A stretch of 64,000 bases of DNA from an uncultured archaeon (lineage in GTDB: Archaea > Asgardarchaeota > Lokiarchaeia > Sigyniarchaeales > SOKP01). Under the pieces are notes generated by a model. That model was not told the origin of the DNA, did no database searches, and was given only the letters and a program-made list of their open reading frames with translations. Both the position numbers and the translations under genes were made by a program. Below are positions 6,048-30,804 of this stretch, piece by piece. The stretch is taken from contig CAZWEM010000001.1 of NCBI GenBank assembly GCA_964632315.1, positions 96,001 to 160,000 of the forward strand, in the 5' to 3' direction. Each line of letters opens with the position of its first letter. The stretch's first letter is position 1.

Positions 6048-7049
6048 GTGATTAATTTGCATCATGTAAAAATTAATGAATTAGCTTTAAAATTAGTTCA
6101 AGAAATAATTCAAAACAAAGAATTACTTAAGGCAGATGTCCATACTCTTGAAAATGGAGCACATGTAATTAATATGACAAATGCAACATGGAAAGGAGGA
6201 AAACTGGTAGGAGAAATTTGTATGGGGGGTTTAGGTACAGTTGATTTTAGTCATTATAATTTAGATGGTCATTATATTCCAAGTGTAAATGTTTATACTT
6301 CAGAACCGATTCTCTCCTGTATGGCTTCTCAATTGGCCGGTTGGAGTGTTAAACTAAAAAAAGAAGTCGAAAAGGATGGTGTAATAAAGAAAAAAGTTAT
6401 CTTTCAGTCATTAGGTTCCGGACCAGCGAGAGCTAAGGGTAAAACAGAAAAACTATTTGAGGAAATTAATTATCTTGATGATTCTGATTGTGCTGTTATA
6501 GTGTTTGAAACAGATAAGCTCCCTAATGAAGAAGTAATGGAAATAGTTTCTAATAAATGCGGAGTAAATGTAAGTAATACTTATGCTATTTATGCTCCTA
6601 CCGCTTGTTTGACTGGTTCTATTCAAGTTGCTGCAAGAATAGTAGAAACTGGAATACATAAACTTCATGAAATTCATTTCCCATTAGAAGTTTTGCGAGA
6701 TGGATTCGGTACTACAACAATTGCACCCATAGCTAAAGATGATTTAGGAGCAATGGGAAGGACTAATGATTCAATTAGTGCCGCAGGGTTAACCTATTAT
6801 ACTATCGAAGTTGAAAAAGAAAAAGAAGCAGAATTATTTGAATTATTGAAAAAGGCACCCGCTAATACGTCCTCTAGTTATGGAAAACCATTTCTTGAGA
6901 CATTTAAAGCAGCGGAATATGATTTTTACAAAATAGATCCCGGTCTATTTGCTCCTGCTAAATACACTATTAATAATATCAAAACTGGAAGGAGCATAAC
7001 AGTAGGAGAAGTAAATCACCAACTCTTAAAAGAATCCTATAAACTTTAG
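6048..7049 (+). CDS. mch: Methenyltetrahydromethanopterin cyclohydrolase
   Basis: EICMGGLG, CMASQLAGW, GSGPARA, GSIQVAARIVETGIHK, AMGRTND, FYKIDPGLFAPA. Confidence 0.95.
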   Translation: MINLHHVKINELALKLVQEIIQNKELLKADVHTLENGAHVINMTNATWKGGKLVGEICMGGLGTVDFSHYNLDGHYIPSVNVYTSEPILSCMASQLAGWSVKLKKEVEKDGVIKKKVIFQSLGSGPARAKGKTEKLFEEINYLDDSDCAVIVFETDKLPNEEVMEIVSNKCGVNVSNTYAIYAPTACLTGSIQVAARIVETGIHKLHEIHFPLEVLRDGFGTTTIAPIAKDDLGAMGRTNDSISAAGLTYYTIEVEKEKEAELFELLKKAPANTSSSYGKPFLETFKAAEYDFYKIDPGLFAPAKYTINNIKTGRSITVGEVNHQLLKESYKL

Positions 7050-7078
7050 GAAGTATAATCTCAAATTTTTTTAATTTT

Positions 7079-8272
7079 TTAGAAATTGGTTAACTCTTCT
7101 TGATATTTTAAAATATCTGTCATGGAAATATCTTTATCAAATTCAATATTTTTTTGAATTCCTAAATAAGCACATGCAATATTAGCAGCAGCAGCAATCT
7201 CTGCCTTTTTTAATGTGAGTGTATATCCATTAACCGAATTTGATTTATCTCGATAATTTGATTGAAGATTATTTTGCATTGAATCATATGTCTGGCTTTT
7301 ATCATCTAAATAATCATAATTTTTATCTTGGATTTGATAAACCCTTTCAAGTTTCATTTTATGTAAGAGAGATGCCATTTTATCAGCGACCTTGAAAGGT
7401 AATTGATTTTGAACAATTACTCTAATAATATTATTTATATCAAAAAAATTCAGTGTTTCATGTTTTGCTCGTAAATATTTTTTTAAGCTTTCAGAATCTT
7501 TTTCACACTCAATTTCTGTCCAATCATGGATTGCGAGCCTTCTTCTGAAAAAAATTAATTCCCAATCGATATCCAATTCTTTTAGAAATTCTAATAACTT
7601 ATCATCGTTGGATCTTTTCATTTCTAAGGTAATATAAAGTTGCAAACCATACCATTTATGCTCCTGTTGTAAGAAAAAACCTCTTTGTTGCATTGAAGCC
7701 AAAATTTTAATATTTAGCGAGTAAATATTGTCAGTAACATTTTTCTTACCACAGTTCAAGTAAACAATATTGCCTTCTTCACTAATATATTCACAATCCA
7801 AGAAACCAATTATGCTCTCACTGTTTTGTTCAATAAAATCACTTAAACCACTGAGGGTTGGATTGACATCGAACTTCTTAAGATCATTCTCACGAATCGT
7901 AACATAATCCGTTTGACTCCCTCCTACAGCTAGTTTAATAGTATGTAATTTTAGTTCGTCTTCTGAACCAAAAACATTTTTGAAGGCATCATTTAGTGGG
8001 AAAATCTCTTTTTCTAAAATTTTTACATCTGCTATTGAACTTTCATATGGTTCGGGTTCTTTAAGTAATTTATTTAAAATAGGTGCTTCTGAGGCATCTA
8101 CTTCTATTTCATAATCTTTTGCTAAATTTTTTTTAATAACACAGATCGATTTTTTTTTCTCATTATACATTGTAAGAGTTGTAGCATTATCAATTACTGC
8201 CCGAAAATGTTCAGTAAATCGATCATCCAAATCATCGGATTTTAGTCTTCTTTTCCTCAAAATATGCACCAA
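7079..8272 (-). CDS. Hypothetical soluble protein (397 aa)
   Basis: Long ORF in AT-rich DNA filling the gap between genes; no motif recognised. Confidence 0.75.
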   Translation of the reverse strand: MVHILRKRRLKSDDLDDRFTEHFRAVIDNATTLTMYNEKKKSICVIKKNLAKDYEIEVDASEAPILNKLLKEPEPYESSIADVKILEKEIFPLNDAFKNVFGSEDELKLHTIKLAVGGSQTDYVTIRENDLKKFDVNPTLSGLSDFIEQNSESIIGFLDCEYISEEGNIVYLNCGKKNVTDNIYSLNIKILASMQQRGFFLQQEHKWYGLQLYITLEMKRSNDDKLLEFLKELDIDWELIFFRRRLAIHDWTEIECEKDSESLKKYLRAKHETLNFFDINNIIRVIVQNQLPFKVADKMASLLHKMKLERVYQIQDKNYDYLDDKSQTYDSMQNNLQSNYRDKSNSVNGYTLTLKKAEIAAAANIACAYLGIQKNIEFDKDISMTDILKYQEELTNF

Positions 8273-8493
8273 ATCATCTTATTCTTATAAGAACCTTTAA
8301 TTTATAAAACAAATATAATCTTTTAATGTTATCTAATGATTTTCATAAAAATTTCGTGATAATTCTCTTTTTTTCATTGGCTTTTTCCGGATTTAGGTCA
8401 GATTTCTTTCTATTTAAATTTCCGCTCTAGTATAATTTTTAATATTATCGAGAAACTAGATAATTAACTTATTAACAAGGGTTAAAAGTAAAT

Positions 8494-8670
8494 TCAGGAA
8501 TCTTCTTCAAGAAAAAAGTTTTCACCCTTCTTGATATAAATTACGGTAGAACCAAAGTTATTTCTTACAGTATATTTATTGCCTTCTACTTCCAATAATT
8601 CGATTGAATAGGGTAATCTTCTGTCTTTTATAATCGATTCGATGATTTCCTTCTCTTCCTTAGGATCCAT
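8494..8670 (-). CDS. Small hypothetical protein (about 58 aa, MDPKEEKE...)
   Basis: Protein-like composition, same strand as both neighbours; ATG at 8670 preferred to TTG at 8694. Confidence 0.6.
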   Translation of the reverse strand: MDPKEEKEIIESIIKDRRLPYSIELLEVEGNKYTVRNNFGSTVIYIKKGENFFLEEDS

Positions 8671-8733
8671 GCATGAGGATAATATGGCAAACAAAAAAAG
8701 TTTTACGCATTCAAATTCAAGTTTTTATAAAAA

Positions 8734-9213
8734 TTATCCTCCTTCTTTCCCTTGAATGCTTTCGAGATCCATTCTTAAGATACTAGTTCTTTCATATTGT
8801 TCATATGTTTTAAATAACTTTTTTTTAAGATTTTCAGGATTTTCTTCTAAATGATGCAACAATACATCAAACCCATGCTCTTTTTCCGATATATCTGTGA
8901 CAATTTTCATCTTTCCTCTTAAGATAACCGAGCGATATGAATGGTTGCATTCGTTCATCTTATACCCGTTATCTTCTATAATTGTTGCACAAACTTTCGA
9001 GTTTTCTTTAATAAAATCAATTTTTAGCCCTTCATTCGCACAATGAAAGTATAAAGAGTTTTTTAACGAGTCATATCCATAACTTAGGGTGACTAAATAG
9101 GGTTCATTATCTCTACACATTGAAATGGTAGTATATTTACCACTTTTTAGAATTTTAGTTAAATTGGAGTCATTTTTTATCTCTTTTTCCTTCCTTCTCA
9201 TGTGATATGACAA
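8734..9213 (-). CDS. Pyridoxamine 5'-phosphate oxidase-like flavin-binding protein (NimA family)
   Basis: MRRKEKE, PYLVTLSYGY, LYFHCANEGLK, YRSVILRG. Confidence 0.88.
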   Translation of the reverse strand: MSYHMRRKEKEIKNDSNLTKILKSGKYTTISMCRDNEPYLVTLSYGYDSLKNSLYFHCANEGLKIDFIKENSKVCATIIEDNGYKMNECNHSYRSVILRGKMKIVTDISEKEHGFDVLLHHLEENPENLKKKLFKTYEQYERTSILRMDLESIQGKEGG

Positions 9214-9462
9214 GATTAGCTCCCAATATAAATAGAGTTATTATAATAATTCAAGTAGATCAAAATTCAAAAAGTTACCTCTCTAAATTTCATTTCAAGC
9301 TAAAACAAGCAATTACTAATCCGATTTTTATATAAAAATTTAACTGTTTCACGGTGTTATTAAAAAAACGTGTAAAATTTAATAAACGAGTTATATATTT
9401 AAATAAAAACTCATTTAATTAAAATATAAGACTAGTAATACTCTTATTTTTAGTGGATTTTT

Positions 9463-10710
9463 ATGGTTAAACAAGCACTTAATATTGGCTTTTTTTCTAG
9501 CATGTATAGCCAGACAAATGGTACCGCGCATGCAGTTAAATTCCTGGCTGAGGCAATTGCAAAATTGGGTCATGATGTGCATGTATTCGCCCCTAAAATC
9601 ACGAATGGGCATACTGTTCCAGAAACACTCCATTATCATGAACTTGGTGGGGCAGTAGTAGGAGACAATACTGGATTCGTTGTAAGCGTACCAATTCATA
9701 AAATGTTCTTTTGTCCGCACGATTATCTCGATATCGCCCATATGCACACTCATGCTACGGTTGCAACAATGGCTATTAATTGGGCTAAATATTTAGGAAT
9801 TCCAATGGTAGGTACTCACAACGCACCACTAGCATATTATACTGCCCAGAACGTCAAAATGATTGGGAACATAATGTCTAAATCTGAGTTTTTATGGAAG
9901 CTTGAAAGACATATTCTTGATAAATATGATTTTGTACATGTTCCTACTAAATCAAAGAAAGATTTATTGTTAAATTATCGGTTTAAGGAACCAATAGTAT
10001 GTTTATCTAATGGCATACATGATGCAATGTTCACTGATTTGAAAGAAAATGGAATTCGTGAAAAATATGGGATAGATGGCAAGAAAGTGTTATTGTATGC
10101 TGCACGATTATCAACAGAAAAACATCCAATAAGCGTTCTTAAGGCATTTAGGAAGATACATGAAGAAGTACCTGATGCACACTTGCTAATGGTTGGAAGC
10201 GGTGGAGCCTCAACAGAAAAGGTACAGCGGGTTCTTAAAAAGAAAGCTTATAGGGATATTGCAACATATGCTGGGCGAGTACCTTTTGTCGATTTATTAA
10301 GACTTTATAAAGCTGCAGATGTGTCTAGTTTATATTCATGGGTTGAAGCTGAAGGATTGGTATTAATTGAAGCGATGGCTCAAGGAACCCCAACTGTTGG
10401 TGCAAATGCGACTGGAATAAGCAACGTGATAAAACATGGAGAAACGGGATATCTTGTAAATAATATGGATCAATTCAAAGATGCGGTTGTAAAATTATTG
10501 AAAGATGATGATCTGAGGGAGCAATTTGGAAACAATGCTAAAAAAGAAGCTCAACAGTACCGAATAAGCAAAATTGCAGAATCTTGGATTAAGTTATACA
10601 AATTTACGATGGATGAATTATATCCATTAAGATATTATCGTAGGGAAAGAAGAGAACGAGTTGATCTGGTTAAAGGATTCGTAAAAACAATCCCTAATGT
10701 AACATGGTAA
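9463..10710 (+). CDS. Glycosyltransferase family 4
   Basis: NGTA, GHDVHVFAP, AARLSTEK, EAEGLVLIEAMAQGTP, HGETG. Confidence 0.92.
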   Translation: MVKQALNIGFFSSMYSQTNGTAHAVKFLAEAIAKLGHDVHVFAPKITNGHTVPETLHYHELGGAVVGDNTGFVVSVPIHKMFFCPHDYLDIAHMHTHATVATMAINWAKYLGIPMVGTHNAPLAYYTAQNVKMIGNIMSKSEFLWKLERHILDKYDFVHVPTKSKKDLLLNYRFKEPIVCLSNGIHDAMFTDLKENGIREKYGIDGKKVLLYAARLSTEKHPISVLKAFRKIHEEVPDAHLLMVGSGGASTEKVQRVLKKKAYRDIATYAGRVPFVDLLRLYKAADVSSLYSWVEAEGLVLIEAMAQGTPTVGANATGISNVIKHGETGYLVNNMDQFKDAVVKLLKDDDLREQFGNNAKKEAQQYRISKIAESWIKLYKFTMDELYPLRYYRRERRERVDLVKGFVKTIPNVTW

Positions 10711-25984: not shown

Positions 25985-27403
25985 TCATTTAGTCACACTT
26001 TTTAGAAGTGTTTTTGATTGGATTTCGATAATTTGTCCACATAAAGGACTAAAACACATAAAAGGTTCATATCCTCCCTCGTCAATATATGTTTTCAAGG
26101 GGAAAAGATAACCAATCCAATCTTGGGAGTTTTGAAAAATAAAAGTATTTTTTTCAGAGGTTGGAGAAGATATTAAAATCCTTTTTCCTATCTCGTCAAA
26201 TAATTCTCCGGGTATGGTCATAATTCCAAGATTCGGTCCTGATTGAGCCTTTAATATGATGAATTGAATCACCGTTTCACAATATTTTCTTAAATTTCTA
26301 CGTATAATCTTAAAAAATGGAAAATTGACGCTATCCTGATCAAATCGTGCTATTTTGAATAGAAAATATTTTTTTATTGCCCATTTTAATGAATTTCCAA
26401 ACCACGTTTTTGAAAAGTATCTCGCATCTTTCATTGGAATAGTTAAATTCTTAGAATAATTCTTAAGCTTGAAATTTTCAATGTAGTCTTCCTCTTTTAT
26501 AGAATTCGCTAATTTAAGAGATTCTTCAGCAATTGTAAATCCTATCTTTTTTGTGTGCTCATATGTTCCTAGCTGATCATAAGTCAATTTTTTGTCTTCC
26601 TCAATTTTCTTTAAATCTGTGCCCGAAGTGGTGATTGGATTTAAGTCTCCAGATGGTCCATTAAAATATATACATTTAATAGAGTTATTAGTCAGTTCTT
26701 CAATTTTAGCGATTATCCTTCCGGGATAATCGGCAGACAATTTGTTATTTTTGAATGATAAAGATGTTGGATGGCAAGCATAGTTAATGACTAAACCAAT
26801 TATTTTTTCTTCGTTTAAACTTTTAAATGAGATTACTCCAAGGTAAGGCATTGTATTTCTTAACGGCCATCTACGATTCACGACTAAATTGGGATTAAAC
26901 TCCTCTTTTTTCCATGCCCCTTTACATGGTTGTAAATTGTTCTTTAACCTTTCAACCATTTGAGATATCCTATCAGACATCCAAATTATAAATTTGTCGT
27001 TTTTATTGTCTGCAAACATAACACCTTTAATAAATGCGAATGCTCCTCCTTGGTAATAAAACTCCCCTGTTAGGTCAAATGAGGAATGAGTATGAGTAGC
27101 ATGGATAATTATATCATCTAGATGTAAAAAATTGACCCTATCAATAATCCTTTTCTTAATATATTCTACTATGGAAAAGGGTAATTTAAGAATATCTACA
27201 GAAATTAATAATAAATGTTTTTCTTTATCCACTTCATCTTTGACCCTAAGTAAAACCCCATAGGCATAAATATTATCTAATTTTCCTAAGCAACGCTCCT
27301 TTCGATCATATCCAGCTAAGGGTTTACCATAATAATCTTTTGGTGTAATATCTATCTTGTCAAAAGCAACCTTCATTAACTGTATTAAATTAATTGATTT
27401 CAA
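25985..27403 (-). CDS. Neutral/alkaline ceramidase-like amidohydrolase
   Basis: DITP..PLAGY, ATHTHS, NRR, NYACHPT, SADYPG, GPSGDLNP, PGELF, GGYE. Confidence 0.82.
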   Translation of the reverse strand: MKSINLIQLMKVAFDKIDITPKDYYGKPLAGYDRKERCLGKLDNIYAYGVLLRVKDEVDKEKHLLLISVDILKLPFSIVEYIKKRIIDRVNFLHLDDIIIHATHTHSSFDLTGEFYYQGGAFAFIKGVMFADNKNDKFIIWMSDRISQMVERLKNNLQPCKGAWKKEEFNPNLVVNRRWPLRNTMPYLGVISFKSLNEEKIIGLVINYACHPTSLSFKNNKLSADYPGRIIAKIEELTNNSIKCIYFNGPSGDLNPITTSGTDLKKIEEDKKLTYDQLGTYEHTKKIGFTIAEESLKLANSIKEEDYIENFKLKNYSKNLTIPMKDARYFSKTWFGNSLKWAIKKYFLFKIARFDQDSVNFPFFKIIRRNLRKYCETVIQFIILKAQSGPNLGIMTIPGELFDEIGKRILISSPTSEKNTFIFQNSQDWIGYLFPLKTYIDEGGYEPFMCFSPLCGQIIEIQSKTLLKSVTK

Positions 27404-27542
27404 AAATGTTATCTTTCAAAAGAAAATAGACTCTCTGATATCTTTTAGCAAAATTTTTATTTTTTTAAATATTTGAATTATTAATTTCATTTTATTATTA
27501 AGAAGAGTCCTGTTTACGTTGAATAAATTAGAACTGTTAGGT

Positions 27543-27806
27543 ATGGAAGGAACCATTGTAAATTATAAGCGTGGACGCCACGTTATACATCCAAAACATT
27601 GTATAATTGTATTTCCAGGAATAAAAACTAGGAAAGACGCAAATAAATTTATTGGTAGAACTATTATTTGGACTAGTTCATCTGGAAAAGAATTGAAAGG
27701 AATTATTTCACGAGCCCATGGAAACAACGGCGCGATGAGGGCTCATTTTAAAGATGCAGGAGTTCCAGGACAGGCTTTAGGACAGAAAGTTAAAATTATA
27801 AAATAA
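27543..27806 (+). CDS. rpl35ae: 50S ribosomal protein L35Ae (eL33)
   Basis: GTIVNYKRG, GIISRAHGNNGAMRAHF, PGQALG; ATG at 27543. Confidence 0.93.
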   Translation: MEGTIVNYKRGRHVIHPKHCIIVFPGIKTRKDANKFIGRTIIWTSSSGKELKGIISRAHGNNGAMRAHFKDAGVPGQALGQKVKIIK

Positions 27807-28006: not shown

Positions 28007-30052
28007 ATGTCAGAACATAACTTACAAATCTGTCGATTTTGTCAAAGAAATATACAGTTGGCATACTATTGTGAAGATTGCGGAGTTAGTTGTTGTTCTG
28101 ATTGCCTTCATGAGGAAAAAAATGAATATTTTATATGCCAAGACTGTAATTCCAAAAATATTGAGGCATCTGATTCTGGAAAGAAAAAGTATTGTAAAGA
28201 ATGTGGTAGTGAAAACTTAACTCAATCAAGCCAATTACTAAAATCGTGCCCAAAATGTCATTCCACATCAATAATAAATATATATGAGAAGAAGGAAGAA
28301 TTAGAAAAGAGTTTCTTGAACTTAATTAAAAATGTACGAAATTTTTTAACTCCTTTCAGCGAATTAGTCAACTCAATGTATCAATTAAGGCAAATGATAA
28401 AAAATGCTAGAGCTCCCCCTATAAAATGCTTTCACTTTTCCAACCTTGAACCCGATTTGTTAGCTTTATTCAAATTACTTGTTTATGCTAAGGATAACTT
28501 CCATGAAAAGATTACAATTTTGTTCAATCATCTCTCACTGAATAAAGAATACTTTTTTGATATTTATACTCAACCTAACGCCAATGTAATAATCATCGAG
28601 GGAATATTAGAGAATCTAACTATAAATTATGAATCAATTCAAGAGTATGTTTCGAATAACGTTAAAACAATCAACTCAAGTTTAGATACAATAAAGAAAA
28701 ATCTCAAGTTTATTGATAAAATAACTTATTATTTTGATACATATAAAAAGTATTTGAATTTAGCAGAAGATGAAAAACCTATATATTCAATTCACGCTAA
28801 GCTAGCCAATGGCTTAAATACACATGATAAATACAAAAAAAGTAAAGGAGTACTTTTTATTACCAACTTGGATTTATCTTTTGTACAATTTAGTGGGAGA
28901 TTTAAAAAGAAAAAACAAGCGATTTTTAAAGCACCAGTAAATGATTTGATAAAAATTAGAGTACATGGAAAGGTTTTTAAGAAACTTTATATTGAATTTC
29001 CCTACGGGAGGTATGAATTCACTCTTCCTCCCAATTCTATAAATAAAGTATTAGATTACATTGTTTTAGCTCGAAATTTCGAAGATACAATAAAATTTGA
29101 TGAAGATGCTGCACAAAAATTAGATGAAATTTATATTGATTTAAACGAAATCACAGCATTTATTGAAGAGACTATAAATTCTTTTTTCAGTTTAAAATGT
29201 CAATACAATTCTGAGCATCAAAAGAGTGAACAACAACAGACAAATCAATATTTCCCGAATTTTTCAAATCCACAAATAAGAAATAGTCCTAATCCCGCTT
29301 ATATTAATACTTTTCAAAATGATATCAATAGGAATGCTTATAATCAAGAATTACCAAGAGCTTACTCAAGAGTGTATCCTCCTAACTCCTATATTTATCA
29401 ACCTGGGATAAGAGCAGATAACTCTGATAACTATTATCAATATGGAAATAGAGAACCATTATATAATAAATATGAAAGTAGATTTATCCCACAAACAATA
29501 TTTAATCCTCAAAGAATCCAAAATTATGAATCTTTAAGGTATTCTTCACCTTATAATATGCATTATCTCGATCCTGATGATAAAAATGTCTTAATGAAAA
29601 AATTAGAACAAGCAAATAAAAAGGGGCAATATGATCCTTATATGAGAAACCCCGCCGCTTATAGTCATGAATTGGAATCAAGTAATTTCCACGATAATAA
29701 ATATTATAATGATTTCTCTAAAAATCATCTGTCTGAGTTATTTGATCATGGTGAATTCCTAAATAATCCAATTAAGATGCCTAAACGCTATTCTAAACAA
29801 GTAAGAGAAAAAAGTAAAGAGATGAGTGAATTAGAAAAGGAGAGATATGGATTAGATGAAACCTTAAAAGCATTAGACACGAAATTCGATCAAGGCGTCA
29901 TTTCAGAAGTTGATTATTTTCGAACCTTCAAGAATCTACAAAAACAAATCTATGATATTGACCAAAAAATAGAATTACTGGGACAACAAATCGAAGATAT
30001 GAACTTTAAGCCCCATTTAAAAGATATTGAAGGAAAACGTTATTTTTCTTAA
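28007..30052 (+). CDS. Multidomain protein: B-box-like Zn fingers, coiled coil, PH/GRAM-like domain, N/Y/P/Q-rich linker, C-terminal steadiness-box-like helical hairpin
   Basis: Six CxxC pairs in the first ~85 aa; GVLFITNLDLSF PH/GRAM-like strand; GLDETLKALDTKFDQGVISEVDYFRTFKNLQKQIY resembles the Vps23/TSG101 steadiness box. Confidence 0.7.
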   Translation: MSEHNLQICRFCQRNIQLAYYCEDCGVSCCSDCLHEEKNEYFICQDCNSKNIEASDSGKKKYCKECGSENLTQSSQLLKSCPKCHSTSIINIYEKKEELEKSFLNLIKNVRNFLTPFSELVNSMYQLRQMIKNARAPPIKCFHFSNLEPDLLALFKLLVYAKDNFHEKITILFNHLSLNKEYFFDIYTQPNANVIIIEGILENLTINYESIQEYVSNNVKTINSSLDTIKKNLKFIDKITYYFDTYKKYLNLAEDEKPIYSIHAKLANGLNTHDKYKKSKGVLFITNLDLSFVQFSGRFKKKKQAIFKAPVNDLIKIRVHGKVFKKLYIEFPYGRYEFTLPPNSINKVLDYIVLARNFEDTIKFDEDAAQKLDEIYIDLNEITAFIEETINSFFSLKCQYNSEHQKSEQQQTNQYFPNFSNPQIRNSPNPAYINTFQNDINRNAYNQELPRAYSRVYPPNSYIYQPGIRADNSDNYYQYGNREPLYNKYESRFIPQTIFNPQRIQNYESLRYSSPYNMHYLDPDDKNVLMKKLEQANKKGQYDPYMRNPAAYSHELESSNFHDNKYYNDFSKNHLSELFDHGEFLNNPIKMPKRYSKQVREKSKEMSELEKERYGLDETLKALDTKFDQGVISEVDYFRTFKNLQKQIYDIDQKIELLGQQIEDMNFKPHLKDIEGKRYFS

Positions 30053-30088
30053 AATAGAAGATAAATTATGAAAAGGAATTAACTATAA

Positions 30089-30739
30089 TTAAGATCCTTC
30101 TAATTCCTTCCTCAACTTTTCGATTTCATCCTCCAATTTCGCTTTTGTACGAATTTCAGGTTCTTCTTCATCATCAAATTCAGAAATGTATTGTAAATCA
30201 TCTACAGGAACATCTGGTACTTGTCCACTCTGATCTAATAGCATTTCAGTTTCAAGTTGGTTAAGTTCATCTGTCACATCAATTGCTAGGTCAATTTCAG
30301 GATCTCCTGCTAATATCTCAGCAGATTCTTCTATCTCTGAAACGTAAGCCTCAGAATCTTCTGCTATTTCTGCTATTCTAGTGGGAGCTGCCTTTGTTGC
30401 AATTGTCTCTAATTCATCCCTAATTCCTCCCATTAAATCACCAGTCATCGAAATCATTTGTCCTTCTTCAATTGCTTCTATTTGCCTTTCAATTTTTGCT
30501 CGAATATTATTCGCTCTATCAACTTTTTGTTGATATTGTTTAAATTGAATCAAATAATTTTTAGCTCTCTCCCGCTCGCCTCTTTGTAAAGCAATTTTTG
30601 CGTTCTTTCGTGAAATTTCCGCTCTTTTATTATATGTTTTATTCGCTAATGCGATCTTCCGGATATGTGATTTTGCTTTTGTCACTAATTCTTCTTTTTC
30701 TTGGTCTTTTCGAGGGAATAATTTTTTTTTAAGTCCCAG
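30089..30739 (-). CDS. ESCRT-III Snf7-family protein (Vps20/32/60-like); probable CTG start at 30739
   Basis: Basic N-half (AKIALQRGERERAKNYL), acidic C-half, DELNQLE, MIM2-like VPDVP, terminal helix EDEIEKLRKEL; frame open up to the CTG with GGAG upstream. Confidence 0.85.
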   Translation of the reverse strand: MGLKKKLFPRKDQEKEELVTKAKSHIRKIALANKTYNKRAEISRKNAKIALQRGERERAKNYLIQFKQYQQKVDRANNIRAKIERQIEAIEEGQMISMTGDLMGGIRDELETIATKAAPTRIAEIAEDSEAYVSEIEESAEILAGDPEIDLAIDVTDELNQLETEMLLDQSGQVPDVPVDDLQYISEFDDEEEPEIRTKAKLEDEIEKLRKELEGS

Positions 30740-30804
30740 CTTGCTTCAACTCCATTAGGAAGTTTATTTTAATTAATTCTCTTTATTAATTATTAAGATA
30801 ATTT

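Follow-up and report, generated by a model that had tools for sequence, protein, structure and literature searches.

The ESCRT proteins of Asgard archaea are the nearest prokaryotic model for the origin of eukaryotic membrane trafficking. One of their families, Znr_CC_PH_SB (also Znr_PH_CC_SB; asCOG cog.011556), has been described as a 'likely ESCRT-I component' (Makarova et al., 2024, mBio 15:e00335-24, PMC10936438), and Table S2 of that study gives the gene order around its member in Lokiarchaeum GC14_75 as PepD, L35Ae, Znr_CC_PH_SB, MetE, Vps20(-), DHQS ... GH57. In the literature that we searched, there was no bench test or interaction test of the family. On the ESCRT-III side, the closest described proteins are CHMP4-7 of GC14_75 (KKK44605.1), which has a filament structure (PDB 9FN1; Melnikov et al., 2025, EMBO J, PMC11791191), and the Asgard ESCRT-IIIB proteins (Souza et al., 2025, PMC11804906).

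Here we analysed a stretch of 64,000 nucleotides (the window) from the genome of an uncultured Lokiarchaeial archaeon, in which a 681-aa ORF lies tail-to-tail with an ESCRT-III gene. The features of the gene pair are as follows.

28007..30052, + strand: Znr_CC_PH_SB gene, 681 aa; single copy in the genome
28022..28279, + strand: Zn-binding module, residues 6-91 (12 invariant Cys; profile matches; AF2)
28280..28756, + strand: helical region (the 'CC' of the family name), residues 92-250 (AF2, three long helices)
28772..29089, + strand: basic PH domain of the GRAM/GLUE/bPH kind, residues 256-361 (AF2; fold and Pfam matches)
29102..29248, + strand: post-PH helices, residues 366-414 (AF2 helices 366-374 and 380-414; pLDDT 89-98)
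29249..29791, + strand: disordered N/Y/P/Q-rich linker, residues 415-595 (AF2, composition, conservation)
29795..30028, + strand: steadiness-box helical hairpin, residues 597-674 (profile matches; AF2)
30053..30088, no strand: AT-rich spacer of 36 bp, stop codon to stop codon, between the Znr_CC_PH_SB and ESCRT-III genes
30089..30739, - strand: ESCRT-IIIB (Vps20/32/60, 'CHMP4-7') gene (called ORF from GTG 30685; conserved N-terminus needs CTG 30739)

On sequence evidence, we assign the 681-aa ORF to the Asgard-specific Znr_CC_PH_SB family (cog.011556) as its orthologue in Lokiarchaeia. All traits of the family are present, namely three Zn sites, a helical region followed by a PH domain, a C-terminal steadiness box and occurrence in several Asgard lineages; the domain order is the published one, and nothing of substance differs. 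Orthology with As_004-p_01543 of GC14_75 rests on synteny rather than on direct alignment, that is, on the gene order PepD, L35Ae, X, (MetE), Vps20, DHQS, GH57 and on the orthologous neighbour. GC14_75 has MetE between the two ESCRT genes, whereas MetE is missing from the otherwise identical order in the window, so that the ESCRT genes are directly tail-to-tail; relatives with a 1.1-kb insert between the pair carry a Meth_synt_2 gene there. An earlier, sequence-only reading of the locus had seen six CxxC pairs, a helical block, a basic beta block, a linker and a terminal hairpin in the ORF, all of which we confirm. The domains that it read from them were likewise borne out: a Zn module, a helical region, a PH fold of the GRAM/GLUE/bPH type, a disordered linker and a Vps23-type steadiness box. 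It also placed the novelty of the locus in this architecture and in the pairing with ESCRT-III, but both are already in Makarova et al. (2024; text, Fig. 3C legend, Table S2; PMC10936438). Since family and neighbourhood were published in 2024, the window confirms known work, to which we add one more well-conserved member, a quantification of how well the pairing is conserved, and a model of how an ancestral cluster was split. Contigs from an RNA library match the ORF exactly over two stretches (28304-28555 and 29116-29298), a weak hint of transcription; the mapped runs were assembled contigs in all four cases and are uninformative on expression levels, transcript ends or absence of expression.

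The CxxC pairs begin at residues 9, 22, 30, 44, 63 and 81 and make up three Zn-binding sites, with 12 of 12 cysteines invariant across 31 orthologues from 12 GTDB families. The eight cysteines of C9-C47 have a B-box/RING/FYVE-like spacing, and the four of C63-C84 that of a Zn ribbon. While the published description is of three Zn ribbons (Makarova et al., 2024; PMC10936438), the first eight cysteines look, by sequence, cross-braced in a B-box-like manner rather than like two plain ribbons. Pfam families matched by the module among the 31 orthologues were zf-B_box (30/31), DZR (28/31), ANCHR-like_BBOX (17/31) and FYVE (16/31), none of which reached its curated cut-off. A cross-braced domain could make the protein a RING/B-box-type E3 or a ubiquitin receptor, and so a ubiquitin-handling entry point to the ESCRT system, which would be compatible with a role as adaptor. 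The near-universal zf-B_box match would fit such a function, as would the profile of residues 1-98, which matched RING/B-box domains of E3 ligases (RNF4 RING, 4e-6; TRIM2, 1e-4; TRIM21, 9e-4), and a weak VIA list in which RING, B-box and ZZ domains predominate. We nevertheless consider it very improbable, because these matches are driven by Cys spacing, Foldseek found no fold match at E<=0.001 (best E>=0.33, to Zn-ribbon-like hairpins), the VIA-wide search stayed at Z<=4.3, and three ribbons are what has been published. The AF2 pLDDT of the module is 87, and its fold may be that of a B-box, a RING, a FYVE domain or three plain ribbons, among which these searches did not discriminate.

That the basic block adopts a PH fold had been proposed from its sequence and is backed by a confident AF2 model, with pLDDT >90 across the helical region and the PH domain. 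Three helices (residues 92-135, 147-184 and 191-250; pLDDT 95-98) lead into the domain, whose fold matches the PH-like domain of Lam6 (Z 13.4, rmsd 2.5, 109 aligned), the PH-GRAM domain of MTMR2 (Z 13.1), the bacterial PH domain 3hsa (Z 11.8) and the GLUE domain of EAP45 (2hth_B, Z 11.3). The domain has a conserved motif, G-x-L-[FLY]-[ILV]-T-N-x-R-L-x-F. The sequence KGVLFITN begins at residue 280, within the block 28754-29101. The segment is basic, with 18 K+R against 6 D+E in residues 256-340. Top Foldseek matches (E 1e-6) were to DH-PH RhoGEFs, a reading that we rejected: the PH part alone superposes well on Dbl-family RhoGEFs (rmsd 2.5-3.5 Å), but the helical part aligns only at rmsd 8-18 Å (8.6-17.7 Å for the alignments that take it in). 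Among the PH domains of 33 orthologues, bPH_3 was the Pfam family matched by most (22/33), followed by Vps36_ESCRT-II (16/33) and GRAM (14/33). The prevalence of bPH_3 is one of the points in favour of a function outside the ESCRT system, namely that of a generic Zn-ribbon/bacterial-PH protein at the membrane that oligomerises through a SHOCT-like hairpin and would owe its place beside an ESCRT-III gene only to inherited gene order.

Between the post-PH helices and the hairpin, N, Y, P and Q make up 41% of the linker (residues 415-595), compared with 21% of the remaining protein. AF2 pLDDT falls below 50 at residues 423-521 and 539-592, and conservation is poor outside a short NHLSxxF island (residues 573-579). 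The linker includes YPPNSY at residue 457, which we considered and rejected as a PPxY-like late-domain motif; it is unconserved even among 15 close homologues of the same family and is therefore not to be read as a motif.

The terminal hairpin (GLDETLKALD..., from residue 615) is modelled by AF2 as two helices, 597-628 and 634-674, with a pLDDT of about 96. Its likeness to the C-terminus of Vps23 had been suggested before. Indeed, a profile of 36 orthologous hairpins matches the yeast Vps23 core (2f66_A, E 2.1e-6; 2p22_A, E 2.9e-6) and TSG101 (6vme_B, E 6.7e-4) over both helices, with Vps37B following at 0.15. In a Pfam search, 25 of the 36 hairpins matched Vps23_core (best 1e-6), three matched SHOCT (best E 0.025) and two CdvA. 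The window's own hairpin scores 16.6-20.7 bits on Vps23_core, below the cut-off of 26.8, and a single-sequence phmmer search of the PDB with the whole 681-aa protein returned nothing below E 0.4. Together, the family-wide profile matches show the hairpin to be homologous to the Vps23 steadiness box. A non-ESCRT function would draw on the hairpin pattern G-x-I-S-x-x-D/E-Y-F, which is SHOCT-like, and on the three weak SHOCT matches; the lead of Vps23_core over SHOCT (PF09851, a very short model) argues against it, and the C-terminus is not one that matches SHOCT or coiled-coil profiles only.

Within the genome, the 681-aa ORF is the only real Vps23_core-like match. A second one (contig 16) was spurious and belongs to an ArsA/Get3-type ATPase, and the hairpin has a single weak paralogous match, to the gene for Vps28 (196 aa; contig 60). 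As the sole carrier of a Vps23-type steadiness box found in this genome, the protein is a sensible bench target. No UEV or E2 domain was matched within the 681-aa protein, whose N-terminus is the Zn module. Nor did we find a UEV-stalk-steadiness box fusion in the genome, but the absence of a UEV from the genome carries little weight because the control of the PF05743 search, itself without a match, matched nowhere either. A UQ_con search of the genome gave short E2-like frames only (<=195 aa).

The stop codon of the 681-aa ORF lies 36 bp from that of a Snf7-family gene, as noted in the sequence-only reading. The neighbour (30089..30685, - strand) matches Pfam Snf7 with 38 bits, above the cut-off of 27.3, and matches 9fn1_U, the 'Vps20/32/60-like protein' of Lokiarchaeum GC14_75 (KKK44605.1), at E 3e-83. 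In a phylogeny it was placed in clade B with support of 100/100, separately from the paralogue that is linked to Vps4 (contig 21). With the clade and the syntenic position both shared, we identify the neighbour from its sequence as the orthologue of GC14_75 CHMP4-7; it is of the same class as the ESCRT-IIIB proteins of Souza et al. (2025). ESCRT-IIIB of relatives starts at the ATG of MGLKKKLFPRK, whereas the window copy has a CTG at that position, a further observation added here; this codon, at 30739, is where the sequence-only reading had placed the end of the locus. This basic-hydrophobic N-terminus is encoded in frame behind the CTG, and the first in-frame ATG/GTG/TTG is the GTG at 30685. 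The CTG is present in one DNA run, possibly of the source sample, and a second DNA run ends short of 30739. No RNA-library contig fell on the Snf7 gene, which, these being contigs, allows no inference on its expression.

Homologues of Znr_CC_PH_SB number more than 260; the source names among the listed matches are all Asgard labels, often with the description 'B-box zinc finger protein'. About 100 clusters (50% identity) matched at E<=1e-10. A single-protein query confined to the phylum found a homologue in 208 of 301 genomes and 20 of 30 families, and little or none in eight families that do bear ESCRT-III (f5, f7, f15, f16, f22, f24, f27 and f30; the f numbers are our working labels for Asgard families). 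Synteny was taken from a protein search of the genomes and the regions around the matches. The proposed linkage to ESCRT-III holds in relatives, with tail-to-tail pairing in 10 of the 13 Asgard families sampled. In the window's own family, 39 of 42 genomes have an ESCRT-III gene convergent with the homologue at a distance of 0-3.5 kb; here the whole block is syntenic, with PepD, L35Ae and DHQS as housekeeping genes in it, so that these loci are not independent evidence. Elsewhere, the distance to such a convergent gene is about 0-640 bp, as seen in f2, f9 (8/8), f10, f14, f17, f18, f21, f23 and f28. The pair is absent from one complete f2 genome, where the convergent neighbour is a gene for a Gtr1/RagA-like GTPase, and also in f3 and f29. 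This deep conservation of the tail-to-tail link also bears on a function outside the ESCRT system. Convergent genes and a syntenic block shared with housekeeping genes would suit mere inheritance of gene order, but the adjacency is kept in at least ten families whose flanking genes are otherwise all different, and f9, f17 and f11 have it within a Vps4/Vps25/Vps22 cluster. We therefore give a non-ESCRT function only a slim chance.

In f9 and f17, the string of Znr_CC_PH_SB (ZNR) and ESCRT-III runs on into Vps4, Vps25 and Vps22. The window's genome carries these last three genes on contig 21, together with ESCRT-IIIA. Most likely, the pair is what is left of a cluster ancestral to the Asgard archaea, Vps22 / Vps25-Vps4 <> IIIA-IIIB > < ZNR, which in Lokiarchaeia is best read as having been split between IIIA and IIIB. 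In f9, a large family, the ESCRT-III gene beside ZNR is of the A type and not the B type, which suggests that what ZNR pairs with is the ESCRT-III string of the ancestral cluster and no single subunit of it. Being convergent, the two genes are not co-transcribed. The sequence-only reading had raised the possibility that the protein nucleates the adjacent ESCRT-III. The tail-to-tail link, which at least 10 families retain and which has survived the break-up of the cluster in Lokiarchaeia, would be explained if the protein were a membrane-bound platform in the manner of CdvA or Bro1/ALIX that itself recruits or nucleates ESCRT-III, bypassing ESCRT-II, with a steadiness box that self-oligomerises. 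Adjacency has indeed outlasted the cluster, both in Lokiarchaeia, where ZNR stays with IIIB and the remaining genes are on another contig, and in f9, where it stays beside IIIA. The two CdvA matches among the 36 hairpins point the same way, as does the published relation between steadiness-box and CdvA hairpins; Asgard ESCRT-IIIB, moreover, faces a nucleation barrier in vitro, which its authors expect other ESCRT components to lift in cells. However, CdvA binds CdvB through a winged-helix tail that is absent from Asgard ESCRT-III, and the adjacent paralogue varies (B mostly, A in f9), a better fit to cluster inheritance than to a specific partner. Direct nucleation thus appears unlikely to us.

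The domain matches, the linkage to ESCRT-III and the absence of a UEV from the protein support the earlier proposal of an ESCRT-I-like adaptor without UEV. We put the probability at about 75% that the 681-aa protein is an upstream adaptor of this kind, acting as follows. Its basic GRAM/GLUE-type PH domain would hold it at the anionic cytoplasmic face of the membrane, and the three-zinc module, much as the Zn fingers do in yeast Vps36, may read a signal from cargo or a partner, possibly a ubiquitin-like protein or the C-terminal domain of Vps28. The disordered linker would tether the steadiness-box hairpin, which may pack against those of Vps28 (contig 60) and perhaps of the SB-bearing Vps22 to form an ESCRT-I-like headpiece. 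From the headpiece, the path would lead via Vps22/Vps25 to ESCRT-IIIB, the product of the neighbouring gene, and then to ESCRT-IIIA and Vps4.

Compared with Vps23/TSG101 (Vps23_core PF09454; PDB 2F66, 2P22, 6VME), the 681-aa protein shares the C-terminal two-helix hairpin, alignable over both helices, and a Pro/Tyr-rich low-complexity region before it, but lacks the UEV and the coiled-coil stalk helix directly before the hairpin, and its Zn fingers and PH domain are in no eukaryotic Vps23. With Vps36/EAP45 (GLUE, PF11605; PDB 2CAY, 2HTH) it shares the kind of PH fold and the presence of Zn fingers in the same chain. The GLUE domain of Vps36 is, however, split by a Zn-finger insert and followed by two winged-helix domains, whereas here the PH domain is unsplit, the Zn module is N-terminal and the model has no winged helix; GRAM and bacterial PH domains fit the PH domain at least as well as GLUE does. 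Crenarchaeal CdvA is likewise a membrane-binding adaptor with a helical hairpin, encoded beside ESCRT-III and Vps4, but has a PRC barrel in place of the Zn and PH domains. The family unites in one protein features that are split over three eukaryotic complexes: the Zn fingers of ESCRT-0, the steadiness box of ESCRT-I and the GLUE-like PH domain of ESCRT-II.

The 681-residue ORF at 28007..30052 (+), called ZNR here together with its orthologues, lies in an AT-rich window (G+C ~30%) on contig 1 of a 4.45-Mb Asgard genome of 119 contigs, where it is single-copy. A sequence-only reading had described this ORF and its neighbour, and the observation is confirmed. Indeed, we located six CxxC pairs (residues 9, 22, 30, 44, 63 and 81), a basic block (KGVLFITN..., from residue 280, in a stretch with K+R 18 vs D+E 6), an N/Y/P/Q-rich linker (181 residues, N+Y+P+Q 41% vs 21% in the remainder) and the terminal hairpin GLDETLKALD..., and the ZNR stop is 36 bp from that of a convergent gene, which is a Snf7 gene as claimed (Pfam Snf7, 38 bits, cut-off 27.3). 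Modelled with AlphaFold2 from 61 homologues (mean pLDDT 80, all folded parts >90), the protein divides as follows:

Residues 6-91: Cys-rich part, beta-hairpins
Residues 92-250: helical region, three long helices
Residues 258-356: PH sandwich, seven strands and a capping helix
Residues 366-414: post-PH helices, two helices
Residues 423-592: linker, disorder
Residues 597-674: terminal hairpin, two helices

As modelled, the sandwich is a PH fold, in line with the earlier proposal. VIA-align superposed it on the PH-like domain of Lam6 (Z 13.4, rmsd 2.5 Å, 109 residues), the MTMR2 PH-GRAM domain (Z 13.1), a bacterial PH domain (Z 11.8) and the EAP45 GLUE domain (Z 11.3), and among 33 orthologues Pfam matches were to bPH_3 (22), Vps36_ESCRT-II (16) and GRAM (14). 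DH-PH RhoGEFs were the top Foldseek matches, but over the helices the superposition is no better than 8–18 Å, so that the likeness amounts to a PH domain placed after long helices. For the terminal hairpin, a profile built from the C-terminal 110 residues of 36 orthologues matched the solved yeast Vps23 steadiness-box core over both helices (2F66, E 2.1e-6; also 2P22 and 2CAZ), as well as TSG101 (6VME_B, E 6.7e-4) and, weakly, Vps37B. SHOCT is not the best match of the hairpin: Pfam Vps23_core was found in 25 of the 36 orthologues, SHOCT in three and CdvA in two. The window sequence alone scores 16.6–20.7 bits against Vps23_core, under the cut-off of 26.8, so the steadiness-box call depends on the family profile and not on the single sequence. 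Outside the folded domains, alignment A2 of the orthologues shows an NHLSxxF motif in the linker (residues 573-579, window 29723-29743), with H, L and F at least 90% conserved in the window genome's own GTDB family only, and a basic-aromatic extreme C-terminus (window 30035-30049), which reads KRY[FY][ST] in that family; a terminal W ends 7/8 members in family f9. Both may be docking motifs.

All 12 Cys of the Zn module are invariant. For the first eight, the sequence suggests a cross-braced domain of the B-box/RING/FYVE type (zf-B_box in 30/31 orthologues; profile against the RNF4 RING, E 4e-6), and the last four form a Zn ribbon. Fold searches with a separate model of the module (pLDDT 87) gave matches too weak to assign a fold. 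Alignment A4 (residues 1-98) also matched ANCHR-like_BBOX in 17/31 orthologues (best 3.1e-5) and FYVE in 16/31, which may reflect mere Cys spacing. ANCHR/ZFYVE19 is a Vps4-binding abscission checkpoint protein.

The convergent gene is one of two ESCRT-III paralogues of the genome, here IIIA and IIIB:

30089..30685 (-): ESCRT-IIIB gene, called from GTG; Pfam Snf7

Its product matched PDB 9FN1 chain U (E 3e-83), titled "Vps20/32/60-like protein (ESCRT-III)", which is CHMP4-7 of Loki GC14_75; Melnikov et al. 2025 (PMC11791191) solved the helical filament of this protein. In the window, CTG at 30739 replaces the ATG of the N-terminus MGLKKKLFPRK conserved in relatives (30686-30760, -), with an in-frame TGA (30748-30746) three codons upstream, and the first ATG/GTG/TTG of the frame is the GTG at 30685. 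Of two DNA runs compared, the one that reaches this site, possibly from the source sample, has the same letters. The substitution would mean that translation starts at CTG, that the protein is 18 residues shorter at its N-terminus, or that the strain or the assembly is variant here.

ZNR homologues were found in 208/301 sampled genomes of the phylum and 20/30 GTDB families, and ESCRT-III in 286/301. With a single-protein query, few or no ZNR matches were obtained in eight ESCRT-III-bearing families (f5, f7, f15, f16, f22, f24, f27 and f30), which may be loss or divergence. We searched ORFs in flanks of at most 8 kb around ZNR in 65 genomes with iterated HMMs, and the ZNR and ESCRT-III genes proved to be linked in relatives. 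Within the own family, ZNR has a convergent ESCRT-III gene nearby in 39/42 genomes (of the other three, two are cut off by the contig end), at 14–100 bp in the own genus and some others or at 1.1–3.5 kb. The tail-to-tail pair recurs in f2 (2/3 informative loci), f9 (8/8, gap 1–164 bp), f10, f14, f17, f18, f21, f23 and f28, and the remaining flanking genes all differ outside the own family. It is missing from a complete f2 genome (locus L061), f3 (L065) and f29 (L082). In the L061 genome (G213; 6098-9791), ZNR converges instead, across 19 bp, with the gene of a small GTPase (469 aa) that resembles Gtr1/RagA (Pfam Gtr1_RagA, 2.7e-15). In f11 (L081), ZNR is separated by Vps25 and Vps4 from the two ESCRT-III genes, which run in its direction. 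One f10 locus (L076 9575-10443, G006) has the adjacent ESCRT-III split into two ORFs, of 117 and 171 aa, that abut; a frameshift, an error in the sequencing or breakage of the gene might explain this. An f23 locus (L083 7992-9797, G053) encodes a 601-aa relative with Zn module and PH domain whose last 110 residues do not align to the steadiness box, 636 bp from a convergent ESCRT-III gene; Makarova et al. (PMC10936438) mention another Asgard architecture, with Zn ribbons and winged helices, to which this relative may belong.

An ML tree divides ESCRT-III into two clades (100/100 support), with one of the genome's paralogues in each. The ESCRT-III next to ZNR is of B type in most families; f9 instead has the A type there, followed in the string by Vps4, Vps25 and Vps22. 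The order in f17 is Vps25-Vps4 <> IIIA-IIIB > < ZNR. These orders are most simply explained by an ancestral cluster Vps22 / Vps25-Vps4 <> IIIA-IIIB > < ZNR that broke between IIIA and IIIB in Lokiarchaeia and in f9 no longer includes IIIB. The grouping of Vps4, IIIA, Vps25 and Vps22 on contig 21 of the own genome agrees with that break. If ZNR nucleated ESCRT-III directly, in the manner of CdvA, this would account for an adjacency that persists where the cluster has otherwise come apart. The A/B switch in f9, however, points to an inherited position rather than a specific ESCRT-III partner, and we keep direct nucleation as an alternative, though an unlikely one.

ZNR is the sole credible Vps23_core-like sequence in its genome, which fits the earlier idea of a Vps23-slot protein without a UEV. 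A second Vps23_core match is an ArsA-type ATPase. No UEV-stalk-steadiness box fusion was found in the own genome in a weak search, whose UEV control query matched nowhere. Vps28 is encoded elsewhere:

Contig 60:13962-14549 (-) of the own genome (G000; L010 1360-1947): Vps28, beside L34e

The gene after it encodes a Zn-ribbon protein whose match to Yip1 is weak and below threshold (E 0.053). Both ESCRT-I-like genes adjoin a ribosomal protein gene (Vps28-L34e and ZNR-L35Ae, the latter at window 27519-27806). What the analysis shows for ZNR is its folds, a hairpin of the Vps23 type and a lasting genomic association with the ESCRT core. We propose that the basic PH domain would anchor it on the membrane while the Zn module would read cargo or a partner, and that the flexible linker would present the steadiness box to Vps28 and perhaps also to the steadiness-box-bearing Vps22 described by Makarova et al. 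(PMC10936438). ZNR with Vps28, and perhaps Vps22, would then form an ESCRT-I-like headpiece leading to ESCRT-II and ESCRT-IIIB. Two stretches of the ORF are matched exactly by contigs of an RNA library from marine sediment, which hints weakly at transcription.

The sequence-only interpretation is correct in substance, yet already known. The ORF is a member of the published family Znr_CC_PH_SB (cog.011556), and the novelty suggested for its architecture and pairing does not hold, since both family and gene order are in Makarova et al. (PMC10936438). These authors considered the family to be lacking in eukaryotes and likely ancestral in Asgardarchaeota, graded it "a likely ESCRT-I component" and expected its PH domain to be membrane-associated. 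Their Table S2 gives for Lokiarchaeum GC14_75 the order PepD, L35Ae, Znr_CC_PH_SB, MetE, Vps20(-), 3-dehydroquinate synthase, ..., GH57. Between PepD and L35Ae the window has a 472-aa ORF (25985-27403, -) with a weak match to the neutral/alkaline ceramidase N-terminal domain (E 1.6e-6, 27.5 bits, under the cut-off of 32.1), which is not present in the GC14_75 neighbourhood as published. The window gene order is otherwise the same except that MetE is missing; where relatives have 1.1 kb inserted between the ESCRT pair, the insert carries a Meth_synt_2 gene.
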